From Alphaproteobacteria bacterium SS10 (lineage in GTDB: Bacteria > Pseudomonadota > Alphaproteobacteria > TMED2), in contig JAHCML010000006.1 of assembly GCA_019192455.1 (NCBI GenBank), positions 25 to 64,024 on the forward strand: a stretch of DNA of 64,000 nt, written 5' to 3'. Position 1 is the first letter of the stretch. The number at the start of each line of letters is the position of its first letter. Below are positions 24,228-44,551 of this stretch, one piece after another. The notes under the pieces were generated by a model. The model saw only the letters and a program-made list of their open reading frames with translations, was not told the origin of the DNA and did no database searches. The position numbers were made by a program, and so were the translations under genes.

Positions 24228-24233
24228 GGGCGC

Positions 24234-25244: not shown

Positions 25245-25293
25245 TGGCGCTAACACTTACTCTTGGCCGATTGGTGGTGCCAGGGCACCCGCA

Positions 25294-27099: not shown

Positions 27100-27116
27100 A
27101 CGCTAACGCCCCCTAC

Positions 27117-28397: not shown

Positions 28398-28442
28398 AAA
28401 GTGCCTCCTATTCGGTCCTAAGCTGCGCCCGGTCTTGCGCGA

Positions 28443-29063
28443 TCAACGCGCCGCGTCAGTGGTTTGAAGAATGATGGATTGTGGCGGCGGCGGTGGATCA
28501 CCGGTACGCACGCGTTCAACGGCCAGCACACTCGGCTGGCTGCCAGATGTCGCCAGGCGGTCATTACCGGCCAGATCAGCAGGGCGGGCGGCCATCCGGC
28601 CAATCTGCTTATCCAGCGAACAACCAAGCGGTGAGCTCGCCTGCATTACATCTGGACAGTTGGGCAGCACCACATCCAAACGACGGAAGGTAGCGACAGC
28701 CCCATAGGGCTGGGCCGCGACGCCGGTGATGACAATGCGGTCACCGCTGATACCGGCATCCATGAATGCCATACGCAGCATGCGGGCATAGCGCTCTCGC
28801 TGATCACTGCTCTCGGTCGCCACAATCACATGGAGGCGGTTGCCGCCATGGCGATCATACTCATTGGCGATGGTCTTAACCGCCTGGAATAGGTCATCAC
28901 CGCCAGCCTCAAGCACCGGCTCAGGGATGGCCATCCGCTGGGCGCTTGGGGCCAGGTCCAGATACTGGTTTGGCGTGACGGTTTGATACTTCTCCTCAAC
29001 CCCAGCGCAGGCAACAATTACACCGCAGAAGAGTAAGGCGAGGCAGGCACGCAGATATTCCAT
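28443..29063 (-). CDS. cpaD: CpaD-type pilus assembly lipoprotein
   Basis: 206 aa. Lipobox 'IVACAG' is present. Operon position immediately downstream of the cpaC secretin supports the call. Confidence 0.7.
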   Translation of the reverse strand: MEYLRACLALLFCGVIVACAGVEEKYQTVTPNQYLDLAPSAQRMAIPEPVLEAGGDDLFQAVKTIANEYDRHGGNRLHVIVATESSDQRERYARMLRMAFMDAGISGDRIVITGVAAQPYGAVATFRRLDVVLPNCPDVMQASSPLGCSLDKQIGRMAARPADLAGNDRLATSGSQPSVLAVERVRTGDPPPPPQSIILQTTDAAR

Positions 29064-29077
29064 GGTCTGATCCTCCT

Positions 29078-30562
29078 TTAATCCAGCAGATAGCCAGGGG
29101 CATCGGTGGCGGCAGGGCCATCGAGACCGGTTAGTGCCTCATCGCCATAGACGGTCTTCAACCGGTCCATCATTCCAAGCTCAACGGAAGTGCTCCGTGG
29201 CGCGCTGGCGACCGGCTGCGCAATGCCATTGCGGTACGGCTTCACCAAGATCGGGGTGACCATGATCACCACCTCGGACTCATTGCGAGAGAACGCATCA
29301 GAGCGGGCAAGCTGGCCCAGCACCGGCACGTCTTTAATGCCCGGCAGACCACTCGCGTTCTTCACCCCCTCTGATTGGATCAGGCCAGCAATCATCAGGC
29401 TGCCACCGCTACCCATCTCAACCACCGTCTCAGCACGGTTTACGGTGAGTGAAGGAACTGTGGTGCCTGCCAGAACAATGGCGGCCTCATTACTAAGCGC
29501 TGATACCTCGGTGCCGAGGCGCAGTGAGATGCGGTCCTCGCTCAACACCGTCGGGGTGAAGGCAAGGGAGACACCAAAGGGCCGGAATTGAATGGTGACC
29601 CCGTCATCATCGGAATCAATCGGGATCGGGAACTCACCACCAACCAGGAACTGCGCCGTCTCGCCGGTGATCGCCGTCAGGTTTGGTTCTGCCAGCACCT
29701 GGATCAGGCCATCCTGCTCCAGGGCATTGATGATGAGGGATAGCGGGCCAAAGCCACCGGGTGAGAACAGCAACTGGCCAATACCAAACGGCGTGGCGGA
29801 CAGGCCGACCGCGGGCAGTGCGTTAAACAGGAAATCGACTGAGTTGTTTGGATCTAGGCCGTCACCAAAGTTCAGCTCAGTGCCCAACTCATAGATCGCC
29901 TCACGGCTCAACTCGACAATCCGGACCCGCAGCAGGACCTGCAGCTCACCAGCAACATCCATCATGTCGACGACATTCTCATCCGCCGTCACGAACCGGC
30001 GGGCAACCCGACGAACACGATCTGCAGCGGCGGGGGAGCTAACACTGCCCGCCAGGATCACATCGCCATTTACCGTACTAATCTCAAGCTCACGCTCTTG
30101 CGGCACGAGGCGTTGCATCGTGTTGTTGAGGGTAAGCTCATCAATCCGCACATGGATCTCAAGCCGGGTGATGATCTCCCCATCCGGGTCAAAGACGAAG
30201 ACGGTGGTGTTGCCCAGCTGACGACCCAACAGATAGATGCGACGAGGGGACGGCACACGGGCATCGGCGATGGCGCTGTCACCGACCAATATCTCGCCAG
30301 CATCGCGAGACAGCTGAATGACTTCGGCCTTGCCAAAGGTCAGCTCAATCGTTCGGAAATCGCGCGAGCCCTTGGCGAAATTGGCTGCGTGGCTATCACC
30401 AACCAGGGCGAAGAGTAGGAAGGCCAGCGCCAGAAACCCGACGGCATAGCCAAGGCCACGATGAACCCGGCGCCAGATTGTTGTGAGCGCATGATCATGC
30501 ATCAATGAAGGATCGATATGCAGGATCTCTAACCTGTTTCCCATCGCCTGTTGGTTCTGCAT
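29078..30562 (-). CDS. cpaC: CpaC secretin (type II/III secretion system secretin family)
   Basis: 494 aa with signal/TM N-terminus. A secretin C-domain pattern is present (…GGFGPLSLIINALEQDGLIQVLAEPNLTAI…VPVLGQL…). Confidence 0.9.
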   Translation of the reverse strand: MQNQQAMGNRLEILHIDPSLMHDHALTTIWRRVHRGLGYAVGFLALAFLLFALVGDSHAANFAKGSRDFRTIELTFGKAEVIQLSRDAGEILVGDSAIADARVPSPRRIYLLGRQLGNTTVFVFDPDGEIITRLEIHVRIDELTLNNTMQRLVPQERELEISTVNGDVILAGSVSSPAAADRVRRVARRFVTADENVVDMMDVAGELQVLLRVRIVELSREAIYELGTELNFGDGLDPNNSVDFLFNALPAVGLSATPFGIGQLLFSPGGFGPLSLIINALEQDGLIQVLAEPNLTAITGETAQFLVGGEFPIPIDSDDDGVTIQFRPFGVSLAFTPTVLSEDRISLRLGTEVSALSNEAAIVLAGTTVPSLTVNRAETVVEMGSGGSLMIAGLIQSEGVKNASGLPGIKDVPVLGQLARSDAFSRNESEVVIMVTPILVKPYRNGIAQPVASAPRSTSVELGMMDRLKTVYGDEALTGLDGPAATDAPGYLLD

Positions 30563-30610
30563 TAGCCGCCTTCCCTTCTTCCCCTAAAACTTACTACCGA
30601 TCAGTACCGC

Positions 30611-31504
30611 TCAATTGGTCAGCCGGACCCGCTGAACTGAGGATCCGTGATAGACCCGCACCGATGGCCCCGTGCCCGCAGACACGTAATCCTCACCGCC
30701 TGCCTCGGCTAAAGCGTTCAACCGCGCAGCCTGGGTTGCAGCTTGCAACGCTTTGGCAATACCGATGTCAGACGTGAACTTTTGACTATCTGGCCGACCG
30801 GCATCGAGGACCTGATCCGCGCTCAACGCCCGCAAGGACAGGCTTAGATCGCCCATCTGCTGTGCCAGGGTTAGCTTCTCCGCCTGCTCCTGGGTGACTG
30901 CAACGGTGACAGAGCGCGCTGGCGCTGCATCCCGGCTATCCGTCACCACCTGATCAACGGCGAGGATGCGAATGCGCTCCAGGACAGTTTCAGAGGCATG
31001 GCGGGCAACAACGGTCTGTGCGGCTTGACGATCTTCACGGTCACCTTCAATGCGCACACTGTAGGTCATCAGGACATCAACGAAGTCACCCGGGCGGACA
31101 AAACCACCGGCTGAGGTTGTAACGGAGACAGGGATGCTGATGGCACGCTGATTGGGCTCCAACGTAGCGGCCAGGAAACCAGCATCCTTATCCTTGGAGA
31201 CCAGCATGCTGGGGAAGATTGGCTCCCCCTCCAATACGGAACGGCGGAGGCGCATATTCTCAAGATTATCGACAATCTCATCACCCTTCCGGATTGCATG
31301 GCGTGGCACCAGCTCAGCCGGCCAATCCTCCCAGGTGAAATCTCCCGTGCCGAGGCCGGCGCCTGTACCCAGATTCTCATCGGCGATCATCACCGGGACC
31401 TTGGGCAGTTCAGCGGGGGCTTCCTCGCCGCTATTGCCGAGGGCCAGAACAATCATGCCAACACCGGTGCCAATTCCGATCAGTAGTGCCATGCCACGAC
31501 GCAT
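30611..31504 (-). CDS. cpaB: Flp pilus assembly protein CpaB
   Basis: 297 aa with an N-terminal TM segment. The SAF/RcpC-like pattern is present. Operon position supports the call. Confidence 0.85.
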   Translation of the reverse strand: MRRGMALLIGIGTGVGMIVLALGNSGEEAPAELPKVPVMIADENLGTGAGLGTGDFTWEDWPAELVPRHAIRKGDEIVDNLENMRLRRSVLEGEPIFPSMLVSKDKDAGFLAATLEPNQRAISIPVSVTTSAGGFVRPGDFVDVLMTYSVRIEGDREDRQAAQTVVARHASETVLERIRILAVDQVVTDSRDAAPARSVTVAVTQEQAEKLTLAQQMGDLSLSLRALSADQVLDAGRPDSQKFTSDIGIAKALQAATQAARLNALAEAGGEDYVSAGTGPSVRVYHGSSVQRVRLTN

Positions 31505-31517
31505 CGTTGCTCCTCCG

Positions 31518-32024
31518 TCAGCTCAATAGGGTCAAAATGTTTGGGATGGTCATGGCCAGCGCGCCAGCGGCGATCGCCACACCATAGGGAACGCGCCGCA
31601 TGCCAAAGCGGAAGCCGCCATCAATACCCACACCTTCCAGCCAAACCGGCAGCGGGCGGGTAGCGGATAGCAGAACAACAACTGAGAGAACGCCGCCGGC
31701 AATTGCCATCGCGATAACAAATGGCAGCGCCAAGGTTGGACCAAATAGCAGCATCAAGGCACTGATCAGCTTGCCGTCACCAGCACCCAGCCAGGTGCGT
31801 GTGAACATGAAAAAGCACACTAAGAAGGCTGCCGCCGCAACGCCGAGATGGCCGATCACCGCTCCCATTGGAATAACCCCGGTGATAACAGCCAGCGGAA
31901 ACAGGCCAGCGGTTAGCATCACCAAGCGGTTGGGAATTCGGAAGCCGCTAATGTCGTACCAGGCAGCCGCTACTACGGCAGCGCTGATCAGCAGGCTAAT
32001 GGCAATCGGAAACAATTCCGGCAT
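31518..32024 (-). CDS. cpaA: Prepilin peptidase CpaA/TadV (A24 family, short form)
   Basis: 169-aa polytopic membrane protein. The track start 32027 is TTG. The ATG is at 32022-32024. It lies immediately downstream of flp. Confidence 0.85.
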   Translation of the reverse strand: MPELFPIAISLLISAAVVAAAWYDISGFRIPNRLVMLTAGLFPLAVITGVIPMGAVIGHLGVAAAAFLVCFFMFTRTWLGAGDGKLISALMLLFGPTLALPFVIAMAIAGGVLSVVVLLSATRPLPVWLEGVGIDGGFRFGMRRVPYGVAIAAGALAMTIPNILTLLS

Positions 32025-32078
32025 CAATCAAGAACTCGCAAAGGTTGTTCGGTGGCTATTCGCAAATCTGGAAACTAG

Positions 32079-32110
32079 AAGCCCGGGCCCCTGAAGCAGG
32101 CGACCCGGGC
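32079..32110 (-). terminator. Hairpin (candidate attenuator/partial terminator) between flp pilin gene and cpaA
   Basis: gcccggg(c)cctg-aag-cagg(cga)cccgggc imperfect GC-rich hairpin. On the minus strand it is followed by the U-rich 'ttctagtttccagatttg'. Confidence 0.4.
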
Positions 32111-32146
32111 CAATAGTGTGGTCGTTAAACCGTTTGGGTGATGGGC

Positions 32147-32353
32147 TTAGGTGCCATCACCACCGCCGCCGCCACCGCCGCCAGCTTGGGCGCCTTGGAC
32201 TTCTTCAGCGATACCGGTGAATGTCTCTTCGAGGGCCGGGCCAAGTAGCTGCAAGCCGCCGAGAACGGCCAATGACACCAGCGCCACAATTAGTCCGTAT
32301 TCAATTGCTGTGGCACCATCTTCTTGTGCCAAAAACTGTCTTAATGACGTCAT
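32147..32353 (-). CDS. flp: Flp/Fap family type IVb pilin with C-terminal poly-Gly tail
   Basis: 68 aa. Flp motif 'G|ATAIEYGLIVALVSLAVL' is present. The C-terminus is '…AQAGGGGGGGGDGT', encoded by a (GGC/GGT)8 repeat at 32157-32183. Confidence 0.85.
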   Translation of the reverse strand: MTSLRQFLAQEDGATAIEYGLIVALVSLAVLGGLQLLGPALEETFTGIAEEVQGAQAGGGGGGGGDGT

Positions 32354-32647: not shown

Positions 32648-33361
32648 TCAGCGTTCGGTGTTACCGCTGGCATCACCAAGGCCACCAGCGCTCGGGTTCA
32701 TCCCGGCTTGTGGGGCTGGTGCCACTTGTGGCTGGGCACGCGACATGGCGGCCGCACTAACCCGTTGGAACGCGGCAACCCGCTTATCAATCGCGACCGA
32801 GGGACCGGCATCAAGTGCGGCCTCATATGGGACCTGCCGGATACCAGCTGACATCGCCTGCTTCATATCGCGGACAGCGGCGATGGTTTTGTTAAGCGCC
32901 TGCTCAAGGTGTTTACCTTGCTTCTCGCGCTTTTTAACTTCCTTACCAGCTTCACCGATCGCCTTCTTGACCTGTTTGGCGGCATTCTTGAAGCCATTGT
33001 CTTTTCGAAGGCTGTTCCAAATACCGAATAGCTGCTCTCGGCTGTTCCAAAGCGCCTCATCCTCGGCAGAGGCAGCGCCCTTCTTCTTCCGGCGTTTCTT
33101 CGGCTGGCCGGTTTCCAAATCCTCTGGCTTTGCCTCCCCATCCCGCACGCGGTCAAAGCGGTCTTCTGCTTCCTGGAGCTGACCCTCAGACCAAATCTTT
33201 GCCAAACGATGGGGATTGGACAGGCGGCGATCGGCACGGCGACCGACATAGCTTAACTGGTCTTGGTTCCTATCAGCCTCACGCTGAATCTCGCCAACCA
33301 GACGGGTGGCTTCCTCAACCACCTTATAAAGCTCGATATTCTTGCCTTGAGGTTTCGCCAT
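32648..33361 (-). CDS. Hypothetical highly charged protein (Lys/Arg/Glu-rich, KKRRKKKG patch)
   Basis: 237 aa with ATG at 33359-33361. No recognisable domain. It lies immediately upstream of the flp promoter and downstream of a radical SAM gene. Confidence 0.5.
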   Translation of the reverse strand: MAKPQGKNIELYKVVEEATRLVGEIQREADRNQDQLSYVGRRADRRLSNPHRLAKIWSEGQLQEAEDRFDRVRDGEAKPEDLETGQPKKRRKKKGAASAEDEALWNSREQLFGIWNSLRKDNGFKNAAKQVKKAIGEAGKEVKKREKQGKHLEQALNKTIAAVRDMKQAMSAGIRQVPYEAALDAGPSVAIDKRVAAFQRVSAAAMSRAQPQVAPAPQAGMNPSAGGLGDASGNTER

Positions 33362-33386: not shown

Positions 33387-34637
33387 TTAATAGAGAACGG
33401 GCGCCGCATCACCGGTAATGGCGCGAATGCGGGGCTGATTCTCTAGCACCCAGTTAACGTAACGGCTGGCGCCGAAACAATCATCATCGGCGCGATTATC
33501 CTTCCAAAACTCCATGATGCATTTGTCGCTGTGGTCGCACTCCATGCATTCAGGGTTCTGGTTACGCAGCACTTGCCGGCGCAGGTAACGACGGCGCGCT
33601 GGTGAGGTCAGGATCTCTTCAAAGTCCTGCTCAAAAATATTGCCAAACTCGCGCATGAACTCTTTCCAGCCATCGCGGTAGTCCGGCAGGACAAAGTCGC
33701 CATTGGGCAGCAGGAACAGCGTCTGGCCAGCGATATTGGCCAAATGCGGTGTCTCGGCCTGGTGGGCGATGAAGCGCATCTGCCCGATCTCTGGCGCCGG
33801 CACGCCATCCTTGCGCAGCTTCAGCCAGTACTCGGACAGCCCGATCATGAAGTCGCTGTATTCATTCATGCGCGGAGCAAAATCACCGTAAGCGCCCGTG
33901 GAGTTCTGATCATTCCACATGAAGGGAAGCCAACTGGTTTCCGCCACACCGATATCGGTGAGGTAATCCAGGGTTTCTTCCGGCCCCTGATCAATTAGCT
34001 CACGGTTAACAACGCTGATCGTTGAGAGGCGTAGACCGGAATTCACAACCGCGCGGGATCGTTCATCCCATTTGCGCATATAGCCCTTACCGCGCATAAG
34101 GCCGTCGTAAGAGCTTTGAACCTCGCCCTCACCATAACGGTCAAAGAGGGCAAACCAATCATCCTTCACCCCAACCAGGGCAGTCAGAACGGTATGCTTG
34201 GTCCGATATCCTTCAGCTTCTGAGAAGACGCCATTGATCGCGTCAGCCGCACTGGTGAAATAATCCTGGCCCATAGAGGTCGGCTCACCGCCATACCAAT
34301 AGCCCACCACGGTTTTCTGGGCGATCTGCTGGTCACGGTAGTATTTATCGACCTTCTCACAGGTCATCCGCAGGTTCTCGACCGTCATCACGGTCTTATC
34401 CTTGCGTTGCTCAAGGCTGAGGTAGCAATGCGGACAGCGGAGCTTACAAAACAAGCTCGGCATCAGCGTGAAGATGAAGTAACCCTGCTCAATACTCACC
34501 AATTGGCGTTGATCGCCGGTCCCGCTTAAGGGGGATGGCGCGACGCCAGGCATGGGCTGGGGCGTGTTTAAGCCAGTTTCAGCAAGGAAAGGGCTATTGC
34601 TTAGCTGTGGGGTTGGTCCACCAAACGACACTGTCAT
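33387..34637 (-). CDS. Radical SAM/SPASM domain protein (anSME/peptide-maturase-like), paralog 4
   Basis: 416 aa. 'CKLRCPHCY' = CX3CX2C at residue ~64. C-terminal Cys cluster 'NPECMECDHSDKC…DDDC' is consistent with SPASM/twitch auxiliary Fe-S clusters. Confidence 0.85.
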   Translation of the reverse strand: MTVSFGGPTPQLSNSPFLAETGLNTPQPMPGVAPSPLSGTGDQRQLVSIEQGYFIFTLMPSLFCKLRCPHCYLSLEQRKDKTVMTVENLRMTCEKVDKYYRDQQIAQKTVVGYWYGGEPTSMGQDYFTSAADAINGVFSEAEGYRTKHTVLTALVGVKDDWFALFDRYGEGEVQSSYDGLMRGKGYMRKWDERSRAVVNSGLRLSTISVVNRELIDQGPEETLDYLTDIGVAETSWLPFMWNDQNSTGAYGDFAPRMNEYSDFMIGLSEYWLKLRKDGVPAPEIGQMRFIAHQAETPHLANIAGQTLFLLPNGDFVLPDYRDGWKEFMREFGNIFEQDFEEILTSPARRRYLRRQVLRNQNPECMECDHSDKCIMEFWKDNRADDDCFGASRYVNWVLENQPRIRAITGDAAPVLY

Positions 34638-34654: not shown

Positions 34655-35368
34655 TTAAGCAGGTTGCTGATCGGTTTCGCCACCGTCAGCGGGTCCACCA
34701 TTACCCGAGTACTGATCGACCAGATCTTTCGCACAGGTTTTGGTGAATTCGTGGATTTGAGCGGTCATACGGCGCGCAAACGCCTTGAACTCTGCCTCAC
34801 CACCGAAGATGGCATAGATGTCCGCACGCAAACGATCCTTAAACGCGATCGTAAAGTCGGCATCTGACAGCGCCGACAGCCGTTGCAGGATATACGGGTC
34901 ACTCACCTCAAACTCATGATCGTCGCCGAGCAAGGTTTCGACGAAGAGATACTCGATGAAGTTCGTAACCGGCGCGAGGAACTGGCCAAAGTTGCTTTGA
35001 CCAAAATAAACCTCAGCGAATGCTTTCAATCGTTCGAAATAGGCCTGGTCTGCCTCGTCGCTGCGTTCTACCGGCGGCAGTAGAGAGAGGGAAAAGCCGG
35101 CATTAGCGGCGACGGAGACCATGTATTTCGGATCGATATCTGACTGCTCTGCTGGGATTTCCAGCACAACCTCAACGCCTGCGAGACCATAAGAGATGAT
35201 GACATCCATCAAGGTTTCGTCGATATCCCCATCCTCACCTTTGAAGATCAGGGAGATATGCTTGAGGTCAGCCGGTGGCGAGAAACTATCAACGTCAACC
35301 TCAACACCGTAGTGGAAAGGCTGGGCCGACAACTCCGCGTTATCGACAATCTCACTGAGAGCAGTCAT
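34655..35368 (-). CDS. Hypothetical acidic protein (possible partner/chaperone of the radical SAM system)
   Basis: 237 aa, rich in Asp/Glu (pI clearly acidic). No recognisable motif. ATG at 35366-35368. It is sandwiched between the precursor candidate and radical SAM paralog 4. Confidence 0.55.
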   Translation of the reverse strand: MTALSEIVDNAELSAQPFHYGVEVDVDSFSPPADLKHISLIFKGEDGDIDETLMDVIISYGLAGVEVVLEIPAEQSDIDPKYMVSVAANAGFSLSLLPPVERSDEADQAYFERLKAFAEVYFGQSNFGQFLAPVTNFIEYLFVETLLGDDHEFEVSDPYILQRLSALSDADFTIAFKDRLRADIYAIFGGEAEFKAFARRMTAQIHEFTKTCAKDLVDQYSGNGGPADGGETDQQPA

Positions 35369-35405: not shown

Positions 35406-35933
35406 TTAGCGCCAACCGCGAGAGCCGTGGCAAGCACCGTGGCACGCACTGTGGCAGTTGCTGTAGCAGCTAAAGCTGTTGATCGTGCCCGACTGGCTCA
35501 ATAGACCACCCGTCGCACCGCCGCCGCCGCCGAGGACCGCATCACCACCGCCAGTCACCTGGCCGCCGACACCACTCTCATTCTGCGCGACCTGCCACTC
35601 ACCAATCGACTTGCCGTCGAAATACTCGTCGGCGATGGACTTGCCGTCGAAGGTTAGGTTGCTGGTGAAGATGTCCAAGCTTTCGCTGACCGCTTCACGA
35701 ACGCTGCGCTTGCTGACAGCGCTAGCAATGGCACGGTCAAGCTCATCGGACACGCCCGTGTCCGTGCTGACTTCAACAGCCTCATAGCTGGCCGCATGCG
35801 CAATAGCGCTGGTGGCGATTAGGGCCAAAGAGGTCGAAACGGCGACCGGGCCAACCTTAATGGCTGACTTCTTGGCTGTGCTGCTATCACCCGAACCATT
35901 GGATGGGTTTGGCATCTGGATATCGTCTGGCAT
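35406..35933 (-). CDS. Candidate modified-peptide/protein precursor: signal-peptide-like N-region, duplicated FDGKSI(A/G)(D/E) motif, Gly-rich linker and C-terminal Cys/His-rich tail
   Basis: 175 aa. Strong SD 'agagggggg' sits 6 nt before the ATG at 35931-35933. Hydrophobic segment 'VGPVAVSTSLALIATSAIAHA|AS' is signal-peptide-like. 'LTFDGKSIADEYFDGKSIGEW' is a duplicated motif. The C-terminus is 'GGGGGATGGLLSQSGTINSFSCYSNCHSACHGACHGSRGWR'. An AT-rich intergenic region with promoter-like elements lies upstream. Confidence 0.6.
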   Translation of the reverse strand: MPDDIQMPNPSNGSGDSSTAKKSAIKVGPVAVSTSLALIATSAIAHAASYEAVEVSTDTGVSDELDRAIASAVSKRSVREAVSESLDIFTSNLTFDGKSIADEYFDGKSIGEWQVAQNESGVGGQVTGGGDAVLGGGGGATGGLLSQSGTINSFSCYSNCHSACHGACHGSRGWR

Positions 35934-36095: not shown

Positions 36096-37211
36096 TTAGG
36101 CTACATCTTCGTGTGATGGCGCTGCGACCAAATCCCAGGTCTGCTGGAACAAACGCTGCCCACCTGAGCACTCACCGGACCCATCATCGTAAAGGCTCGC
36201 CAAACAGCCAGAGGAGCAAACCTTACGGAACTGGCAGGTTTGGCAGTCCCATTGGCGCTCTGCCCGCGCTTGCTCATAGTCACCAAAGGCAAGTATTTCG
36301 GTCGCGCGCTTATTATCGATCTCAGACGTAACGGCAGTACAACCGGCCTTGTAGCCATTAGCATCGATCGTGTGGAACTTAGTGTCGCAACTACCAGACC
36401 AACAGCCATAGCCCCCGGCTTCACCGGCCTGAAGACGATTAATGCTCTGAATCAGACCATCTAGCGGCGAGACATGTAGACGATCGCTCGCCTCCACTTG
36501 TTCGCGCGTCTCACAATAGCGCCAATAGGCCCGCATAAAGCGGTTCATCGCGGCGCTGTATTCAGCATTATTCAGGCCAACGCGGTCCCAGTTCTCTCGC
36601 GCGTAGCCGGTTTTGGTGACACGCTCGAGATGTACACGGCGTACACCTCGCTCTTCCATCATCTGGAAGAACCGATAAGGGTCGCGGAAATGCTCAACAA
36701 AGGTACGGGTAAAAGTCACGACCATATAGGGGTCGAGGCCATCAGCTAGCAGCCGCTCAAAATTATTCCAGAACCGAGATTCATAAACCTCGTTGGATTG
36801 CCGATCATTGGCGCGTAACAGCCGAATTTTGGGGTCCCAAGACACCCCAACCTCGCCGCCAAAGTACTTCTTGTAAACCGGGATCCAAGGATCGCCATAG
36901 GTCATCAGGTTGGTCTGGATACCGTGCTGCCATTGATAGTCGCCACCAGCGGCCTCAACCGTATCAATCGCTTCCGCAAGCCATTCAGCACCGAAGATTG
37001 TCGGCTCACCACCATGCCATTGCAGCAGGATATTCGAGCCCTTCGGTGCGAACTTGGTCAGCTGCTCTGGGATCGCGGCCAGATCATCCTTACCCATCTT
37101 CTTGGGGTTGGAAGGAATAAAGCAGTGCTCGCAATGAAGATTGCAGCCCTCAAAAACCCGAACGTAAACCAGGTGGTCAAAGGCTGGGGCGAAAGGCAAA
37201 CGTCCACTCAT
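36096..37211 (-). CDS. Radical SAM/SPASM domain protein, paralog 1
   Basis: 371 aa. 'CNLHCEHCF' = CX3CX2C at residue ~23. C-terminal 'GCWSGSCD…GYKAGC…CQTCQFRKVCSSGC' is SPASM-type. Confidence 0.85.
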   Translation of the reverse strand: MSGRLPFAPAFDHLVYVRVFEGCNLHCEHCFIPSNPKKMGKDDLAAIPEQLTKFAPKGSNILLQWHGGEPTIFGAEWLAEAIDTVEAAGGDYQWQHGIQTNLMTYGDPWIPVYKKYFGGEVGVSWDPKIRLLRANDRQSNEVYESRFWNNFERLLADGLDPYMVVTFTRTFVEHFRDPYRFFQMMEERGVRRVHLERVTKTGYARENWDRVGLNNAEYSAAMNRFMRAYWRYCETREQVEASDRLHVSPLDGLIQSINRLQAGEAGGYGCWSGSCDTKFHTIDANGYKAGCTAVTSEIDNKRATEILAFGDYEQARAERQWDCQTCQFRKVCSSGCLASLYDDGSGECSGGQRLFQQTWDLVAAPSHEDVA

Positions 37212-38419
37212 GCCGCTGCCCCTTCCTTGGTCTTATCGCCTGCCTTATCCGCGGCCGCTGCACCGTCGGTATCAAGCCCAGCCTGAGCGGCAGCATAGAT
37301 ATTGCTCGCGGCACTGAATTTCTCGCGAAGCGCTAAATCCAGATCCAAATAGGCAAGCAACGGTGCCTGCCCGCGATCCGTAATGAACTGCCGGATATGG
37401 GTCAGGAATGTTTTGTAGCCGGAGCACTCCACCTCACCATCTGGAACACCATTCGGTGTGATGGGGCAGCCAGAGTGGCACCAATTGCTGTTCTCACAAC
37501 CATGGCAATGGTCCCGCTTATGGCCATAGCTCTGCATGCGAAGCCATTTGCGCCGGAACGAATTCTTGGCAAAGCCTTGGAAGCCACCTTCCACATTGCC
37601 GTAATTCTCTTCCACCGTTGATTTATCCGGGCAATTATTGAGGGAGCCATCTGGCTCAACAACCACGAAGTCAGACTGGCAGGTGGTGCCCCAACGATCA
37701 CCAGGCGCCTGGAACAGCACGCCCATAATGCCGGCTTTCACAGCGCCGATGATTGGCGCCTTACCATCCCGCTCCATCCGCTCCATCACGGCATCAAAGA
37801 GGCCCATGAGGAAGTAGGAGTGCTCAAGGTTATTGGGACGATCATCAAAATACGTCTGATAGGAGTTGTAGCGGTCCAAATTGACCACCTCGAACTCGCG
37901 CTCAACAAACCAATCTACTAGCTCTTGCTCGCGGCCCAGCTCCTGCCGTGTCGGCACAACGCCAGGCACCACATTGATCCCATCACCGCGCACGCGCTCA
38001 ACCTTTTGCATCCAAAGCTTGTGGTAGTTCTCCACCGAGCCCTTGATCTGCCGTTGGCTGAAATCAATTGAGGAGCCAATCTCACGGCCACAACGCTCAA
38101 TCACCCAATCGCGATACTCATCACGCCATGGGATAAGGGATGTTTGGATCGCCTGGAAGTTATCGGGCAGGACCTTGTCCAACACCTCACCCGCTTCCCA
38201 GTACCATTCAACTGGAACCGTTAGCGGCTCACCACCATGCCAGAGGACGAGCGACGCATCCTTGCGCTGGGCCTTCTGCATATCGGCGATCAGGGTGCCT
38301 GCCTTGGCCAGCACGTCATGGCTCATCCGGAATTTATTGGCGCGCACGATCTCCGGCAGGTAGCAATGGGTGCATCCCACATTGCAGTAATTTGTCGGCT
38401 TCACATAAGCGACAATCAT
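37208..38419 (-). CDS. Radical SAM/SPASM domain protein, paralog 2
   Basis: 403 aa. 'CNVGCTHCY' is present, plus C-terminal 'CPDKS…CHGCENSNWCHSGC'. It overlaps paralog 1 (ATGA) and paralog 3 (ATGA), suggesting translational coupling. Confidence 0.85.
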   Translation of the reverse strand: MIVAYVKPTNYCNVGCTHCYLPEIVRANKFRMSHDVLAKAGTLIADMQKAQRKDASLVLWHGGEPLTVPVEWYWEAGEVLDKVLPDNFQAIQTSLIPWRDEYRDWVIERCGREIGSSIDFSQRQIKGSVENYHKLWMQKVERVRGDGINVVPGVVPTRQELGREQELVDWFVEREFEVVNLDRYNSYQTYFDDRPNNLEHSYFLMGLFDAVMERMERDGKAPIIGAVKAGIMGVLFQAPGDRWGTTCQSDFVVVEPDGSLNNCPDKSTVEENYGNVEGGFQGFAKNSFRRKWLRMQSYGHKRDHCHGCENSNWCHSGCPITPNGVPDGEVECSGYKTFLTHIRQFITDRGQAPLLAYLDLDLALREKFSAASNIYAAAQAGLDTDGAAAADKAGDKTKEGAAA

Positions 38420-39573
38420 GCGGCGATCTCGCGGTTCAGGTTGCGCTTGCGGCGCACCTCCTCGGGGTCCAGGCCGTATTTGCGGATGGCGCCATCCGCC
38501 TCACCATTGCGCACGGTCTCTTTGATGCGGTCAAAGACCATCATCCAAGCATGGCAGTAGTGGAACTTGCCGCCCAGCCCATGATTGTACAGCACAGCAT
38601 CGCGCATGCAGCCGCCCTCACACTCACCGAAGTGGCGGCAGCTTTGACAATCGAGCGGAAGGTCGACGCGACGACGGCGGATCATGGCGGCCGCCCGTGA
38701 TTTCATCAGCTCCGGAATGGTCATCTCATTGAGATTGCCAAACATGAACTCTGGATCGCCCAAATCCGCAAACTCTGAGCAGTTATAGGTATCGCCATTC
38801 GGCTCCAGGCCCAGGAAATGACCGCCGCAGGATCTGGTCCAGGGGCAGCGATTAACCTCAAGGGCAATCACCTTCTTCAGCATCTCATCGAGCGGGGTAA
38901 TGACGAAAACCGGCAGGTCTACGATCCAGCGCTCATAAAGCTCAAGCAGCATCGTGCCGTAATCATGGGGGCTAATCATTTCCCCATTACCCTCATCCCG
39001 CCCCGCCGGATACCGGTAGTTGAAGCGGAGATGCGGCGCCTTATCGCCATAGGCTAGGCTACGGTCATACATCTCATGCGCCATGGGCGCGGTTTCGGTG
39101 GTGTAGGTGCCAATGATCTTCGGATAGAAGCCATCGTCGAGCACCTCCTCTAGCCGCTTATAAAACAGGCGGGTGTAGAGGGCTGCCGAGCCCTTATAGA
39201 TGCGGTTGGTTTCATCCGGATCGAAGGATGTTGAGACCGAACCGTTGAAGATGTCTTTAAAGACGTCATACCAACGGTTGTGGTTATAGCTCAGCAGGTT
39301 CGTCTGGATTGAGAAGTTGATGTTGGGGTTCTGCGCCTTGGCATACTCCCAAGCCTGCTCATAGAAGTCAGGGCCAAGCAGCATGGGCTCACCGCCATGC
39401 CAGATAATGTAAGCCTGGTCGGTTAGATGCGGGCCAATCTTATCGAAATACCGCTTAAAATCGTCAATCGACCATTTCGGCACCCCGTCAGGGGGCGCAC
39501 TGCAATAGGTACAGGCCGCATTACAAACCTTCGTTGGTTTGGCGATTACGGTAGAGATCATGCCTAACCCCAT
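38416..39573 (-). CDS. Radical SAM/SPASM domain protein, paralog 3
   Basis: 385 aa. 'CNAACTYCS' is present, plus C-terminal 'CPWTRSCGG…CSEF…CQSCRHFGECEGGC'. Confidence 0.85.
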   Translation of the reverse strand: MGLGMISTVIAKPTKVCNAACTYCSAPPDGVPKWSIDDFKRYFDKIGPHLTDQAYIIWHGGEPMLLGPDFYEQAWEYAKAQNPNINFSIQTNLLSYNHNRWYDVFKDIFNGSVSTSFDPDETNRIYKGSAALYTRLFYKRLEEVLDDGFYPKIIGTYTTETAPMAHEMYDRSLAYGDKAPHLRFNYRYPAGRDEGNGEMISPHDYGTMLLELYERWIVDLPVFVITPLDEMLKKVIALEVNRCPWTRSCGGHFLGLEPNGDTYNCSEFADLGDPEFMFGNLNEMTIPELMKSRAAAMIRRRRVDLPLDCQSCRHFGECEGGCMRDAVLYNHGLGGKFHYCHAWMMVFDRIKETVRNGEADGAIRKYGLDPEEVRRKRNLNREIAA

Positions 39574-39765: not shown

Positions 39766-42700
39766 TTACAGCTGGCAGTAAACCGTCACAACCGCAACGC
39801 CGTTTGTCATCTGACGCCATGGTGCCAGATCATTCTTCTGACGCGCTTCCATGACAAGGGTGCCACCGCCGGTCATATACACACGACCCTGGGTGTTGTT
39901 GTCATAGTCACCACCGGCAAGCTCAGTACCATCAGCTGGATTGATGTCGTCGATATCGGTAACGCGAATGACGTCATCCTGGGCCGTACCGGCACCATCA
40001 CCATCCTGAAGCTGCGTGATACGGGTCTGCGCAATCATGACCGGCGTCACCCACCATGCTGGGGTTGCAGCGTAGAAGATGGTGCCTGCGCCACCACCCG
40101 TTGGGGTCAGGCAGCGATTTCGAAGCGTTGCACTAACGGTTTGACCATCACTTAGGACCTCAACGCCAGAAACAATCAACTGCTCTGAGACGTTGGTGTC
40201 GCTCAACCAAACATCACGGCCGCGAAGATAGATATCATCAACGTCCAGGTAAGACTGATCAGCACCAAGTGGTGATGCACCGACCAGCGCACCAGCACCA
40301 AGCTTCAAGGCACCATCGGCCGCAGCTGATTCAGTAAAGAACCGCATCCGGTTTCCACCGGCAGCATTGTTCACAATGAGCGATGGCTGGGCGGCATCGC
40401 TCTCACCGCGCAAGACCACACGGTTGGTACCTGCCTGATCAAGGATCCGAACGACATTCCGGGTCGCATTTGAGACGATCTGCATCGTGTCGGTCGCTTG
40501 ACCATTATTGCGAATACCGAAGGTGTTGTTGCCATCGGAGTAAGCAATCCGACCGTCATAGTCCGCGCCGAGTGAACCGGTCCCCTTAAAATCAATGAAG
40601 GAGGTTTGGTTGTTACCGCTACCGATCTCAACACCGCCATCATTTGGATCAACGAGGAAATAGCCACCTGCGGTTGGCGTATTCGCATCAGCAGCGGACA
40701 GGCGGAACTGACCATTGTTGCTGTTCACGATTGCACGCTCGACACCATCAGCAGCACGCCAGTCCTGGACCCCGCTTGCGGTGTCAAATTGGCGCCGAAG
40801 GTTACCGGCAGCATCGTTCAACCGCTCTACACCTGCAGCGGCGTCGGTCTCGAATTCATAACGAACCGTTCCGGCAGTATCACGAACCCGAACAAACGCG
40901 CTGTTACCAGAACTCACAAACTGATTGCGGTTCCGGCCAGCTGAGTCAGACATAACCACATTGGTATCAGTGGCATTATAAATGGCAGCGAGACGATTAT
41001 TGGTACCGTCCGAGAACACCAGATTACCATCGGCACCAAAGTAGTCGGTACGGAACCGGTCATTAGCACCGTCATTCAACTCCAAGCGCCCCGAGCCCGC
41101 CCCATAGTTAGCGGCAAAGCGTGAGTTCGCGGCTGTATCGTTCCCAATGGCAATCTGACCCGTTGTTGCATCGTAATCAGCAAGAAGCCGGCGGGAACCG
41201 CCATCATTCATCGACAAGCGACCCGTGAGGGCAGTGTAGTTGGACACGAACCTAGGATCGACACCGGTTGTGTCATTACCAATAGCAATCTGACCTGTAC
41301 CCCCAGTGTAGTCGGCAAGCACGCGCTGGTTGCCACCGACATCGGCCAACTCGACACTACCGGTTGCAGCGTCATACTGGTTCATCACCCGTTGGGTCGC
41401 CCCATCATCACGCATGATGTTCTGACCAACATTCCCATCATACCGAGAGACAAAACGCTCTGCATCCGCAGCCTGGTTGACTTGATCGCGAACTCCAAAT
41501 CGACCAGCGGTTGGGCTGTCATATTGCTGAACAAAGCGCTCAACGCCGGTTTCGTCACCAACACGAACCAAACCACGAGCGTTGCTAGCGGCTGTACCAG
41601 CAGCATCGAGGCCAAACTCTGACCGCAGACGCTCGTTATTCGCATTGTCGCGCATAACGAAGGTGCCGGCCTCTGGAATGACGCCGTTACCGGCACGGTT
41701 CTGGCCATAATCGAACTGCACACGATCCCGGACACCACTGGCATCGGTCATGGTGAAGTTACCAGCATCAGGGAGAACGTTACCGGCACGGTCAAAGCCG
41801 TAATCCAGACGCATCCGCTCTTGCAGGCCGTCGTTGAAGAACGTCACGCCCCGGGCGTTACCACCTTCAGAGGTGTAAGACGTCTGGGCACGTGGGGCCG
41901 CAGCAACACCATCGCGAAGGGTAATGTTACCGGCAGTTGGCTCACGAGCGTTCAGCTCATCAAGCCCGTAATTCAGCTCAATCCGGCGGGTTGCCAGGGC
42001 GCCGGTATCGGTACCCGCGCTGATTTGGCCAGCTTGGCTGCCCGTATCGTCAAAGGTGAAGTTCCCACGCTCTATGTTGGCCGCATCATAAAGCTTAAAG
42101 CCTGGGTCGGTAGATCGAACACCAGCGGCTGGTGCCACCAGTGCGACTTCAACACCATCCACATCGAGGCCGGAATCCAGAATCGCACGCTGACCATTCG
42201 GTAGGGCACGATTTGCAGCCTCAACCCGCTGCTGGGCGCGGACACGCTCTTCAGCATCGACGAAGCCAAAGATTGCATCACCACCAACGATATTCACATT
42301 GCCGCGGGCGTAAGCAGCGTTGGCACCAGTCTGGTTGTCGTTACCAAATCGAATGACGTTCTCATTCGTTCCGGCCCCAACAGCTGGATCGAAGTTACTA
42401 TCCAGTTCACCATCAGCGTTCAAATCAACACGCGGCGCTGCAGCCGGGGCAAACACGGCAGGTGCCGGCAGTGGCACTGTATTTGTCTGGAGGCCGTTTT
42501 GCCCAACTTCCGGGTTGCCATCCTGGGCGAGCGCAGCACCATTCAGCGGCGCACCAATTTGGGCCACGTTGGCCAGGCCAAACTCACCCATATTGATGTT
42601 GGCATTCATCTGCTGGGCTTCTGGCTGCCCTGGAATGCTGTTCCGGTATAGGAAGTCGGCAACGACGCCACCTTCACCAAAGAACGCCATGGCGGCTAGG

Positions 42701-43338
42701 CCACCACGTTCTGGTGGAACACCGAGATCTGCGTTATCCAACTCCCAACCACCGAACGCACCATAGGTGGTGTTATCGGCATACACCCCAGAGACATCAG
42801 AGCCGAAACCAAGTTCGGTCGGGTCAGCAGCACGCCAACCGGCGTCGGCGCCAACGGCAGCCGCGATCTGGGCCGCAGTTGTCGGCTCAATATGTTCATA
42901 ACTGCCGGTGCCGTCATCCTCGGACACCACCTGCACCCGCAGACGCTCACCGCCAATGTTCAAAACATATATATTGAGGTCGTGGCCAAAGGCGTTCTTG
43001 CGGATATCCGCGCCATCAAAGAAACGGGGATCCAGATAACCATCAAGAGCATCATCATCCAACTGCTGGGCCGCACCGCCGGCAACCGGGTCACCGATAT
43101 CGGCATTACCGCCATCGATGATGTCGCCATAATTATCGATAACGTACGCGGCGGCGGCATCACGAACAGCGGCCAATTGCTGTGCCGTTTGTTCAGCCTT
43201 AACGCGCCGGAGGTTATCAACCTGCAGATTAGCAATCGCGCCAAGCCCAATACCAAGGGTTGCAACGCCCAGTATCGCTTCAGTCAAGCTGATACCGCGC
43301 TGCCCAAGAGGCTTTTGAGAGTTAATTTTTTTACTCAT
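39766..43338 (-). CDS. Giant type IV pilin-like protein with tandem degenerate ~22-aa repeats (putative pilus-associated adhesin/fibre)
   Basis: The track start 43353 is TTG. ATG at 43336-43338 with SD 'gaggga'. N-terminus is MSKKINSQKPLGQRG|ISLTEAILGVATLGIGLGAI: a 15-aa basic leader ending in Gly, Glu at +5 and a ~20-aa hydrophobic helix, i.e. a class III (prepilin) signal. There are ~1190 aa in total. The central ~450 aa are repeats of the form …R..(A/V).Y(D/G)..TG…..D(G/T)..N(R)… . Confidence 0.8.
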   Translation of the reverse strand: MSKKINSQKPLGQRGISLTEAILGVATLGIGLGAIANLQVDNLRRVKAEQTAQQLAAVRDAAAAYVIDNYGDIIDGGNADIGDPVAGGAAQQLDDDALDGYLDPRFFDGADIRKNAFGHDLNIYVLNIGGERLRVQVVSEDDGTGSYEHIEPTTAAQIAAAVGADAGWRAADPTELGFGSDVSGVYADNTTYGAFGGWELDNADLGVPPERGGLAAMAFFGEGGVVADFLYRNSIPGQPEAQQMNANINMGEFGLANVAQIGAPLNGAALAQDGNPEVGQNGLQTNTVPLPAPAVFAPAAAPRVDLNADGELDSNFDPAVGAGTNENVIRFGNDNQTGANAAYARGNVNIVGGDAIFGFVDAEERVRAQQRVEAANRALPNGQRAILDSGLDVDGVEVALVAPAAGVRSTDPGFKLYDAANIERGNFTFDDTGSQAGQISAGTDTGALATRRIELNYGLDELNAREPTAGNITLRDGVAAAPRAQTSYTSEGGNARGVTFFNDGLQERMRLDYGFDRAGNVLPDAGNFTMTDASGVRDRVQFDYGQNRAGNGVIPEAGTFVMRDNANNERLRSEFGLDAAGTAASNARGLVRVGDETGVERFVQQYDSPTAGRFGVRDQVNQAADAERFVSRYDGNVGQNIMRDDGATQRVMNQYDAATGSVELADVGGNQRVLADYTGGTGQIAIGNDTTGVDPRFVSNYTALTGRLSMNDGGSRRLLADYDATTGQIAIGNDTAANSRFAANYGAGSGRLELNDGANDRFRTDYFGADGNLVFSDGTNNRLAAIYNATDTNVVMSDSAGRNRNQFVSSGNSAFVRVRDTAGTVRYEFETDAAAGVERLNDAAGNLRRQFDTASGVQDWRAADGVERAIVNSNNGQFRLSAADANTPTAGGYFLVDPNDGGVEIGSGNNQTSFIDFKGTGSLGADYDGRIAYSDGNNTFGIRNNGQATDTMQIVSNATRNVVRILDQAGTNRVVLRGESDAAQPSLIVNNAAGGNRMRFFTESAAADGALKLGAGALVGASPLGADQSYLDVDDIYLRGRDVWLSDTNVSEQLIVSGVEVLSDGQTVSATLRNRCLTPTGGGAGTIFYAATPAWWVTPVMIAQTRITQLQDGDGAGTAQDDVIRVTDIDDINPADGTELAGGDYDNNTQGRVYMTGGGTLVMEARQKNDLAPWRQMTNGVAVVTVYCQL
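40600..42050 (-). repeat. Intragenic tandem degenerate repeats (~66-69 nt unit) in the giant pilin-like gene. Coordinates are approximate.
   Basis: Protein-level periodicity is present (…ADYTGGTGQIAIGNDTTGVDPRFVSNYTALTGRLSMNDGGSRRLLADYDATTGQIAIGNDTAANSRFAANYGAGSGRLELNDGANDRFRTDY…). Boundaries were estimated from residue positions, not computed. Confidence 0.5.
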
Positions 43339-43362
43339 TTCCAAATCCCTCAAACGAGAAGG

Positions 43363-44262: not shown

Positions 44263-44551
44263 ATCAGCACCTCCCGATCACAAATCGGTGGCTGAAATCG
44301 CTGGAAAAACCTGTGTTCACCCTGATCACTAACGGGACCCCCATCCCACAACTCGGACACACAACACTGCCACAAACCCCATGGGCAGCACTAAATCATC
44401 CGCTAAAGCACGGGGCACTGCAACTTAAAAGTTTGTTAAAATTGTATCGTTAACGCAATTTGCGGCAGGTTTGGCGCAGTCACCGGGAGCAAAGCAAAGG
44501 CTTTAATTTCTGCGGATTTTGGCAATCGCCGCCCCAAAAACGGGCATGGCG

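Follow-up and report, generated by a model that had tools for sequence, protein, structure and literature searches.

A repeat-tailed protein family as candidate substrate of a multi-enzyme radical SAM cassette associated with type IV pilus loci

Introduction

The closest described relatives of the system treated here are found among the ribosomally synthesised peptides with post-translational modifications (RiPPs) that are matured by radical S-adenosylmethionine (SAM) enzymes. For the triceptides the chemistry is established with several residue pairs, HaaB and ScaB joining His-C2 to the beta-carbon of Ala on H-A-A, OscB joining Trp or Phe to the beta-carbon of Asn, and YxdB joining Tyr-C3 to the beta-carbon of Asp (PMC11499958, PMC11002830). 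The bufferins provide a precedent for RiPPs that have a Sec signal peptide and conserved cysteines, bind copper and are modified before export (PMC11626156). In plasmid genomics, a 'radical SAM cluster + type IV pilus' has been described as a conserved backbone region of the pQBR and IncP-2 megaplasmids, with enzymes of unknown role and no named substrate (PMC7070040, PMC4989453, PMC13391042). The present analysis concerns a 64,000-nucleotide stretch of contig JAHCML010000006.1 of Alphaproteobacteria bacterium SS10, referred to as the window, and within it a 175-amino-acid (aa) protein, PRE, the candidate substrate or precursor of a cassette of radical SAM enzymes encoded around it.

What do these enzymes act upon, and how is the cassette connected to the pilus? 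The reading favoured here, and held with moderate confidence, is that PRE is the substrate of the cassette, that it is modified in the cytoplasm, exported by the Sec route and works together with the pilus. It is probable that three to five neighbouring radical SAM enzymes rebuild its C-terminal tail, and the cassette itself is best explained as an accessory module of type IV pilus loci, of the Tad kind in the window and of the type IVb kind elsewhere. The argument draws upon family architecture, residue conservation, synteny and the differentiation of the enzymes, which point to the tail as the substrate, to export, to a partnership with the pilus and, more loosely, to a chemistry and a function.

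PRE and its protein family

PRE is encoded by an ATG-started open reading frame (ORF) at 35406..35933 on the minus strand, as are all the genes of the locus described below, and a purine-rich, Shine-Dalgarno-like GAGGGGGGG can be read 5-12 nt 5' of its start codon. Residues 1-47 (35793..35933) comprise a long n-region, MPDDIQMPNPSNGSGDSSTAKKSAIK, a hydrophobic stretch, VGPVAVSTSLALIATSAIAHA↓AS (the arrow marking a cleavage position, here and below), and an A-x-A motif, and together form a probable Sec/signal peptidase I (SPase I) signal peptide. Residues 48-118 (35580..35792) make up a conserved small helical domain that holds a lineage-specific FDGKSI duplication, FDGKSIADEYFDGKSIGEW, and may serve either as a leader-like handle or as a retained folded domain. 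C-terminal to the duplication lies a Gly-rich variable linker (residues 119-155, 35469..35579). The protein ends in the tail, SCYSNCHSACHGACHGSRGWR (residues 156-175, 35409..35468), which reads as the units CYSN, CHSA, CHGA and CHGS followed by RGWR and is presumed to be the site of modification on the strength of its invariant columns, the statistics of its units and the repetition of its DNA, where a 12-bp tandem repeat runs for 2.7 copies (35425-35456). A first-pass annotation, made from the letters alone, had put this frame forward as a precursor gene; the ORF is genuine and the listed elements are all present. The regular C-x3-C spacing of the tail and the histidines after three of the cysteines were read correctly, but the tail holds four cysteines (C156, C160, C164 and C168, giving C-x3-C three times at i, i+4 spacing) and not five.

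PRE matches no family in Pfam or NCBIfam, and yet 82 homologues are present in a collection of 5.8 billion proteins, and a profile built from 51 homologues and run against 1.84 billion clusters at 50% identity retrieves 293 representatives with E<=1e-3 (171 with E<=1e-10), nearly all of them full-length proteins of 110-190 aa. By these searches PRE founds an unannotated protein family. The alignment gives a common layout, in which an N-terminal hydrophobic segment ending A-x-A is followed by a domain some 65 residues long, marked by the conserved pattern K(R/K)xV(R/K)xAV...F..L...G..L..YF, a near-invariant Asp (D131, usually within D-S-T), a linker that varies in both length and composition, and the tail. 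In an AlphaFold2 (AF2) model of PRE made with 51 sequences, the predicted local distance difference test (pLDDT) score is 86-94 over residues 31-110, which cover the signal helix and a small helical domain with two short strands, and falls below 50 over the linker and the tail, the latter being drawn as a helix. The model has no matching fold in the PDB.

The tail is the most conserved part of the family. In 193 of 204 family sequences, and in all 82 database homologues, the protein closes with an array of (Cxxx)n and then R.WR, placed at the C-terminus or a few residues short of it, and in the 51-52-sequence alignment, where mean column identity is 26%, the invariant positions are C160, C164, H165, A167, C168, H169, S171, R172, G173, W174 and R175. 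A tail has between 2 and 13 units, which are of two kinds, C-H-x-A and C-Y-x-N; the matched combinations H..A (293 units) and Y..N (209) far outnumber the mixed H..N (26) and Y..A (16), counts that are phylogenetically non-independent and to which whole-unit duplication also contributes. Position 3 of the unit is free to be S, G, T, A, N, Q, D and others, and positions 2 and 4 stay coupled although position 3 drifts. The last unit is nearly always CHGS, so that the tail closes with CHGSRGWR. The comparison of homologues that the first-pass annotation had called for thus identifies the tail as the conserved, family-defining element. Its suggestion that the FDGKSI duplication is the recognition element of the maturases is unsupported, since the repeat is confined to the window protein and one 74%-identical relative (P0001 and P0002), the others having at most a faint [DG][GN]xx[LI] echo.

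The longest array, of 13 Cxxx units, belongs to a 229-aa member, P0071, whose middle domain is interrupted by about 80 inserted aa. PF27846, a very recent Pfam family, was considered as a label for the PRE family and set aside, as its precomputed match lies only in the P0071 insertion and is not family-wide.

An independent pairing of CHxA repeats with a radical SAM enzyme

A pattern scan brought up a second, unrelated family of membrane proteins of 450-570 aa, which end in 6-13 ACHSACHS/ACHSACHD repeats followed by VSGGAR/H or VSSF. Their hosts include Clostridia, Anaerolineae, Spirochaetes, Elusimicrobia and Acidobacteriota, among others (for instance locus L040, 7541-11522, and also L023-L053 except L029, L045 and L046). 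In 28 of the 29 loci with such a tail a single radical SAM/SPASM gene directly follows the tailed gene, and a 331-aa membrane protein is usually encoded after it. The enzyme is AhbD/NirJ-like (141 bits against a cut-off of 500) and belongs to a different clade from the window enzymes; neither it nor the tailed protein matches a curated family. As CHxA repeats and SPASM enzymes occur together in two unrelated contexts, chance is an unlikely explanation for their pairing in the window, and the second family lends independent, comparative support to the view that CHxA repeats are radical SAM substrates.

The radical SAM enzymes and protein X

The window encodes four radical SAM enzymes, all with a CxxxCxxC motif and Radical_SAM and/or SPASM domain matches. 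rSAM_A (38416..39573) has eight auxiliary cysteines, consistent with full ligation of the kind seen in the anaerobic sulfatase-maturating enzyme (anSME); rSAM_B (37208..38419) has seven and is without the extra upstream ligand; rSAM_C (36096..37211) again has eight. rSAM_D (33387..34637) is different in that some 60 residues rich in Pro, Ser and Gly precede its CxxxCxxC motif, the Aux-I ligands are lost and only the CX2CX5C...C set is kept, leaving four C-terminal cysteines for a single, Twitch-like auxiliary cluster, a pattern common to its six orthologues. A fifth orthogroup, rSAM_E, is absent from the window. Within each orthogroup the cysteine set is fully conserved, at 3+8 for A (all 11 cysteines, 16 orthologues), 3+7 for B (16 orthologues), 3+8 for C, 3+4 for D and 3+8 for E (11 orthologues). 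Since each orthogroup keeps its own completely conserved auxiliary set, the enzymes appear specialised rather than redundant, and these comparisons describe old and differentiated paralogues, which argue for several distinct reactions on one substrate.

Among NCBIfam models and PDB structures the enzymes come closest to DynA, anSME, AmcB, GrrM/OscB, YhhB and ChlB, and the solved structures closest to rSAM_A are those of anSME (4K36, E 5e-13), CteB and the triceptide synthase ChlB. In anSME both auxiliary clusters are fully protein-ligated, and in the alignment with rSAM_A all eight auxiliary-cluster cysteines are matched. CteB, by contrast, has a 7-Cys SPASM pattern and an open Aux-I site that binds a substrate cysteine. 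Given its 7-Cys pattern, as in CteB-type enzymes with an open Aux-I site, rSAM_B is by analogy the best candidate for a thioether-type reaction, and rSAM_A, rSAM_C and rSAM_E would be candidates for carbon-carbon crosslinking or oxidation.

Directly after PRE lies the conserved gene for X (34655..35368), an acidic protein of 237 aa that lacks conserved Cys and for which a radical SAM core-like (beta/alpha) fold is predicted. X has 22 database homologues and no match in Pfam or NCBIfam. With hhalign it is related to the N-terminal ~230 residues of the proteins encoded at the same position in Agrobacterium (330 aa, 100% probability) and Pseudomonas (414 aa, 96.9%), and its family has no sequence relationship to rSAM_A, C or D, for which reason a description of X as a decayed radical SAM paralogue would rest on the fold. 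X is presumed to be a non-catalytic partner or chaperone.

The cassette and its pilus genes

In the direction of transcription the window locus consists of two ORFs with hydrophobic N-termini (299 and 209 aa, 43363..45181, without a Pfam match and kept in L003, a close relative), a 1195-aa protein with the type IV prepilin N-terminus QRG↓ISLTEAILGV (39766..43353, without a Pfam or NCBIfam match), rSAM_A, rSAM_B, rSAM_C, PRE, X, rSAM_D, Y and a Tad locus. The first three enzyme genes are joined by 4-bp overlaps (rSAM_A/rSAM_B and rSAM_B/rSAM_C), a gap of 162 bp precedes PRE, gaps of 17-37 bp separate PRE, X, rSAM_D and Y, and 294 bp lie between Y and the Tad locus. Y (32648..33361) is a highly charged 237-aa protein that has no family in Pfam or NCBIfam and is present only in the closest relatives, with a 56% identical copy in L003. 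The Tad/Flp pilus locus (23274..32353; Flp, CpaA, CpaB, CpaC, CpaD, CpaE-like, CpaF, TadB and TadC, with Pfam matches to Flp_Fap, Pilus_CpaD, T2SSE and, twice, T2SSF) is complete, directly downstream of the cassette and on the same strand.

How general is this arrangement? Sixteen related loci, drawn from the surroundings of the homologues, PLSDB and GTDB genomes, were compared, with gene order taken from tblastn mapping and a Rhizobium locus left out of that mapping. In all 16 PRE is small, co-oriented and placed among radical SAM/SPASM genes, which bears out the association proposed in the first-pass annotation. The order rSAM_A, B, C, PRE, X-homologue, typically with pilus genes and a large prepilin-like gene ahead of it and further radical SAM/SPASM genes behind it, recurs in alpha- and gammaproteobacteria alike, in Agrobacterium rubi, Thalassospira, Hyphomicrobiales and marine alphaproteobacterial metagenome-assembled genomes, and also in several Pseudomonas species, Oceanospirillaceae, Cysteiniphilum and a P. 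fluorescens megaplasmid. Departures are seen in Vibrio (rSAM_A, PRE, rSAM_B, rSAM_C), in a short Methylococcales contig, L012, with only rSAM_A, rSAM_B, PRE and X, and in L014, where no A-C trio is seen upstream and the contig stops some 0.7 kb beyond rSAM_D. In 13 loci genes for the pilus ATPase and platform occur within 10 kb upstream, and in 12 of the 16 the gene directly 5' of rSAM_A encodes the canonical N-terminus of a prepilin (G↓F/L/I-T/S-L-I/T-E); in rhizobia this gene encodes a PilV-type Shufflon_N protein.

The family is also widespread on plasmids, PLSDB holding it on 118 Pseudomonas plasmids, one of Stutzerimonas and one of Rhizobium. For instance, on p12969-DIM, a plasmid with the I-type mating-pair formation system (MPF_I), the 124-aa 'hypothetical protein' WP_010792555.1 is a PRE homologue that ends CHNACHGACHGACHGSRGWR and follows pil genes and three orthologous radical SAM genes; on its 3' side are six more radical SAM/SPASM genes, a phosphoenolpyruvate (PEP)-utilising enzyme and a 2-oxoglutarate (2OG) oxygenase. 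The Pseudomonas megaplasmid loci (L009, 16469-30058, from p12969-DIM, and L016, L018 and L019) share this extension, with about six extra radical SAM/SPASM enzymes, two of them of 570-610 aa, a 1155-aa PEP-utilising enzyme and a 2OG-Fe(II) oxygenase, a gene content that implies much heavier tailoring than in the window.

Some relatives lie beside Dot/Icm-type (MPF_I) genes (L003, 13250-18158, and L007, 5524-6195; TraX-like, IcmW and DotI/IcmL), which fits carriage on I-type conjugative elements. Such neighbours raised the suspicion that the window itself is an MPF_I conjugative element; this is ruled out by its wider flanks, which are housekeeping genes (purA, hisS-like, serA, rpoH-like sigma factor, glmM, folP, kdtA and purK), and the window cassette is therefore chromosomal. 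The GC content is 0.52-0.58 in the pilin-radical SAM-PRE block (32-45 kb) and 0.59-0.61 in the Tad genes, and the block may have been inserted beside a pre-existing Tad locus. A scan of 32-45.5 kb for promoters and terminators gave fewer promoter-like sites than shuffled sequence and no convincing attenuator after PRE. Elsewhere in the window, and unrelated to PRE, a 692-aa ORF at 49655-51733 has a sub-threshold protein-kinase match (19.6 bits against 31.7), and the 193-aa ORF adjoining it matches no family.

Taken together, these comparisons extend the first-pass annotation by three things: a close and conserved association with type IV pilus loci, the Cys-less partner X with its predicted radical SAM-like fold, and the two-unit grammar of the tail.

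Export of PRE

The N-terminal region was assessed over the 204 family sequences with a home-made, heuristic rule set. By these rules 198 sequences have an uncharged hydrophobic stretch with a small-x-small site after it (A-x-A in 167), and Lys or Arg stands ahead of the stretch in 181, so the features of a Sec/SPase I signal (n-, h- and c-regions with small residues at -3/-1) run through the family. None of the 204 has a twin-arginine (Tat) RR motif, a lipobox Cys, a prepilin G↓xxxxE or a second transmembrane-like segment under the same rules; the G↓xxxxE feature of type IV and Flp pilins sits instead in the upstream 1195-aa gene. A40, A43 and A45 of PRE are each at least 90% conserved, and cleavage probably follows A45, at the family-conserved A-x-A, or A47 (AHA↓AS). 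The Pseudomonas member starts MKQFTGNRVMVAIAVSALTASAYA↓ETH, a textbook Sec signal peptide, and this, together with the family-wide result, makes a cleaved Sec signal the best reading of the PRE N-terminus. With the conservation of the tail and the radical SAM neighbours, it also makes an exported modified protein a better description than a bacteriocin-type peptide, as the first-pass annotation had preferred. That annotation had also named what would speak against it, namely homologues that lack the Cys/His tail or radical SAM neighbours, or, alternatively, an N-terminus that prediction tools call the anchor of an ordinary membrane protein with conserved globular domains, and neither proved to be the case; of its interpretation as a whole, the tail, the enzyme neighbours and export have stood and the recognition role of FDGKSI has not.

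Proposed mechanism

Full-length PRE would be made in the cytoplasm, where its C-[H/Y]-x-[A/N] repeats and CHGSRGWR end would be modified by rSAM_A, B and C, and by D or other paralogues, probably with the assistance of X and with the ~65-aa domain as a docking handle. The modified protein would then be exported by Sec, its signal peptide being cut at the conserved A-x-A, and the mature form of ~125 aa would act in the envelope together with the pilus. Most plausibly it would be bound to the pilus, or secreted through it, by way of the large minor-pilin-like protein encoded just upstream, a partnership proposed from synteny and by analogy. Type IVb pili are known to secrete or display operon-encoded, Sec-dependent proteins via a large minor pilin, as with TcpF/TcpB and CofJ/CofB.

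With regard to the chemistry, the coupling of H..A and Y..N across a free middle residue is the omega1-X2-X3 rule of the triceptides, and the most likely products would be three-residue cyclophanes on H-x-A and Y-x-N, linking an aromatic carbon to the beta-carbon of the third residue. This assignment, made by analogy, is tentative and falls short of an even chance. The interleaved cysteines would either remain as a thiol or metal-binding stripe or enter thioethers made by the 7-Cys enzyme rSAM_B; thioether formation on the tail is rather doubtful, and both kinds of link may be present together. A lesser possibility is that the terminal Cys is oxidised, within the sulfatase-like C-H-G-S-R. It is plausible that three-residue rings are small enough to pass SecYEG. 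Beyond this, a more speculative picture, on balance unlikely in its entirety, can be drawn in which specialised radical SAM enzymes crosslink the tail into a rigid rod, perhaps metal-binding or redox-active, that is carried or secreted by the type IV pilus via the large minor pilin, the megaplasmid module serving pilus-dependent mating-pair formation or surface colonisation. If true, it would give the long-unexplained 'radical SAM + pilus' backbone of the megaplasmids a function.

Several observations weigh against the proposal that PRE is modified, exported and put to work with the pilus. None of the four enzymes reaches the cut-off of a curated NCBIfam family, the best score being that of rSAM_A against DynA (134 bits, cut-off 450), followed by TIGR04083 (132, cut-off 300) and anSME (120, cut-off 349). 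The chemistry is argued wholly from likeness to other systems; triceptide chemistry leaves the invariant cysteines unexplained, and the SRGWR end is not accounted for either. No RiPP recognition element (RRE) domain, protease or dedicated transporter was detected. Pilus linkage has its exceptions, as L007 has no pilus genes within 10 kb (DotI/IcmL being nearby), L003 has only a pilin-like gene, and short contigs also lack them. In the AF2 model the signal-peptide helix of PRE has a high pLDDT and packs with the domain, and could in such a model be an uncleaved anchor. Finally, the Pseudomonas precursors have no C-Y-x-N units and yet keep rSAM_A, B and C, which leaves no simple map of one enzyme to one motif; a scheme assigning A, B and C to YxN, HxA and the terminal HGSR was abandoned for this reason.

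Alternative explanations

Is PRE instead a classical RiPP precursor, in which the 65-aa domain is only a leader and the tail (~20-55 aa) is modified, cut off and released as a small metallophore or antimicrobial, the pilus link being incidental or regulatory? A conserved N-terminal region, a variable linker and a hyper-conserved C-terminal core are the usual leader-core layout, tailoring by multiple radical SAM enzymes is typical of RiPP clusters, to which the Pseudomonas version adds its PEP-utilising enzyme, 2OG oxygenase and further radical SAM enzymes, and cleavage could take place at the near-invariant D(S/A)T motif (D131) that precedes the linker. Nevertheless, the conserved core encodes neither a protease nor an ATP-binding cassette (ABC) or major facilitator superfamily (MFS) exporter, the rule set finds a Sec signal peptide throughout the family, the middle domain is predicted to be folded (pLDDT ~90), and prepilin-like genes are syntenic in 12 of 16 loci, so that this explanation is considered improbable. 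Similarly unlikely is an unmodified periplasmic or pilus-associated metal binder, whose Cys/His stripe would take up Cu(I), Zn or another metal and whose enzymatic neighbours would act on another substrate, such as the pilins. It would agree with the invariance of Cys, with Cys-His dyads at helical spacing (the AF2 tail helix being of low confidence) and with a repeat number of 2-13, as expected of a capacity trait, but metal ligation explains neither the Tyr that replaces His in the N-terminal units nor the strict H..A / Y..N coupling, and the invariant SRGWR end would have no role; PRE lies inside the radical SAM block in every locus, and the independent (CHSA)n family is likewise tied to a radical SAM enzyme.

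A third possibility is that the signal anchor stays uncleaved and holds the modified tail at the inner membrane, on its periplasmic side, as a component of the machinery that assembles the pilus; this is considered quite improbable. The h-region is unusually conserved in the alphaproteobacteria (VSASMALVATxAMA) and of high pLDDT, which speaks for it, whereas A-x-A follows the h-region in 167 of 204 sequences, the region itself is ~16-19 residues long and rich in Ser and Thr, and the gammaproteobacterial sequences diverge there, as signal peptides do. Least credible of all is a haem-binding tail matured in the periplasm, with overlapping C-x3-C-H motifs as variant c-type attachment sites, for although CHSACH reads as CX3CH and PRE is predicted to be Sec-exported, a canonical CXXCH is missing, the number of Cys is often odd (three units in 46 of 193), N-terminal units carry Tyr rather than His, and the radical SAM cassette and SRGWR end would be unexplained.

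Comparison with known systems

To judge by sequence, the window locus works like a radical SAM/SPASM RiPP-type maturation system that stands outside the enzyme families against which it was compared, namely those of the triceptides, SCIFF/ranthipeptides, CXXX-repeat targets, Hxs, anSME and bufferins. Like triceptide precursors, PRE has repeated aromatic-X-X motifs, every unit reading as omega1-X2-X3 (Y-x-N or H-x-A/S), and like their maturases the window enzymes lie in an anSME-like SPASM neighbourhood, with AmcB, GrrM/OscB, YhhB and ChlB as best matches. Unlike them, the window enzymes score only 20-60 bits with the AmcB, GrrM/OscB, YhhB, FxsB and XyeB models (cut-offs 310-450), which places them outside the three-residue cyclophane-forming enzyme (3-CyFE) families; PRE has an invariant Cys between its motifs, a Sec signal peptide and a folded domain; and the cassette has three to five paralogues, coupled to pilus genes, in place of one enzyme per cluster.

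Cys-rich repeats beside SPASM enzymes are a feature that the cassette shares with the thioether RiPPs (the sactipeptides, and ranthipeptides such as SCIFF and freyrasin, with the enzymes CteB and PapB) and with TIGR04115. However, the enzymes score far below the models for the SCIFF maturase ScfB (26 bits against 425), PapB (35-44 against 340) and StsB (25 against 625), NCBIfam, including its SCIFF precursor, contains no match to PRE, and PRE differs in having its Cys at the extreme C-terminus and no acidic or other obvious acceptor at a fixed distance from them. PRE does have the CXXX periodicity of the TIGR04115 CXXX-repeat targets, but rSAM_B reaches only 17.3 bits against a cut-off of 350. 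As regards the His-Xaa-Ser system (HxsA-D), the HxsB and HxsC models give 36.6 bits against 370 and 36.4 against 267.9, and only the terminal unit of PRE reads H-G-S. With anSME the likeness lies in rSAM_A, for which it is the closest solved structure with its eight auxiliary Cys aligned, and in the substrate motif C/S-x-P/A-x-R, the terminal C-H-G-S-R of PRE resembling C-x-P-S-R. Against this, the score remains at 120 bits where 349 is required (TIGR03942), PRE has no sulfatase domain, its +2 residue is Gly rather than Pro or Ala, and its internal units have Cys rather than Arg at +4. The bufferins, finally, differ in their MNIO/DUF692 maturase and in having metal-stress genes rather than a pilus as genomic partner; no Pfam match to DUF692, DUF2282 or EGKCG occurs in PRE or its neighbours.

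The cassette is of interest to RiPP and radical SAM enzymology in that it brings together a precursor family with a two-letter repeat grammar and a Sec signal peptide, at least five differentiated SPASM/Twitch paralogues in one pathway and a Cys-less partner with a radical SAM-like fold. Full-text literature searches with the tail motif and with combinations of radical SAM, pilus and plasmid retrieved no description of the PRE family, nor was one found that combines a Sec signal, a folded domain and a two-unit Cys/His/Tyr tail with three to five (up to nine) radical SAM paralogues, a partner of radical SAM-like fold and coupling to Tad or type IVb pili. As for the pilus, the cassette suggests that Tad and type IVb systems have in common an accessory protein crosslinked after translation.

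By gene content and order the window cassette is the same cassette as the 'radical SAM cluster + type IV pilus' backbone of the megaplasmids, and PRE thereby names a candidate substrate for a radical SAM block that was reported in 2015, 2020 and 2026 as a conserved Pseudomonas megaplasmid backbone of unknown function, carried among others by the IncP-2 plasmids that spread multidrug resistance. The question of the substrate becomes directly testable with one protein of 124-175 aa and three to five enzymes. Relative to the IncP-2, pBT2436-like and pQBR backbones, the window offers a chromosomal, Tad-adjoining copy of the cassette with fewer tailoring genes.

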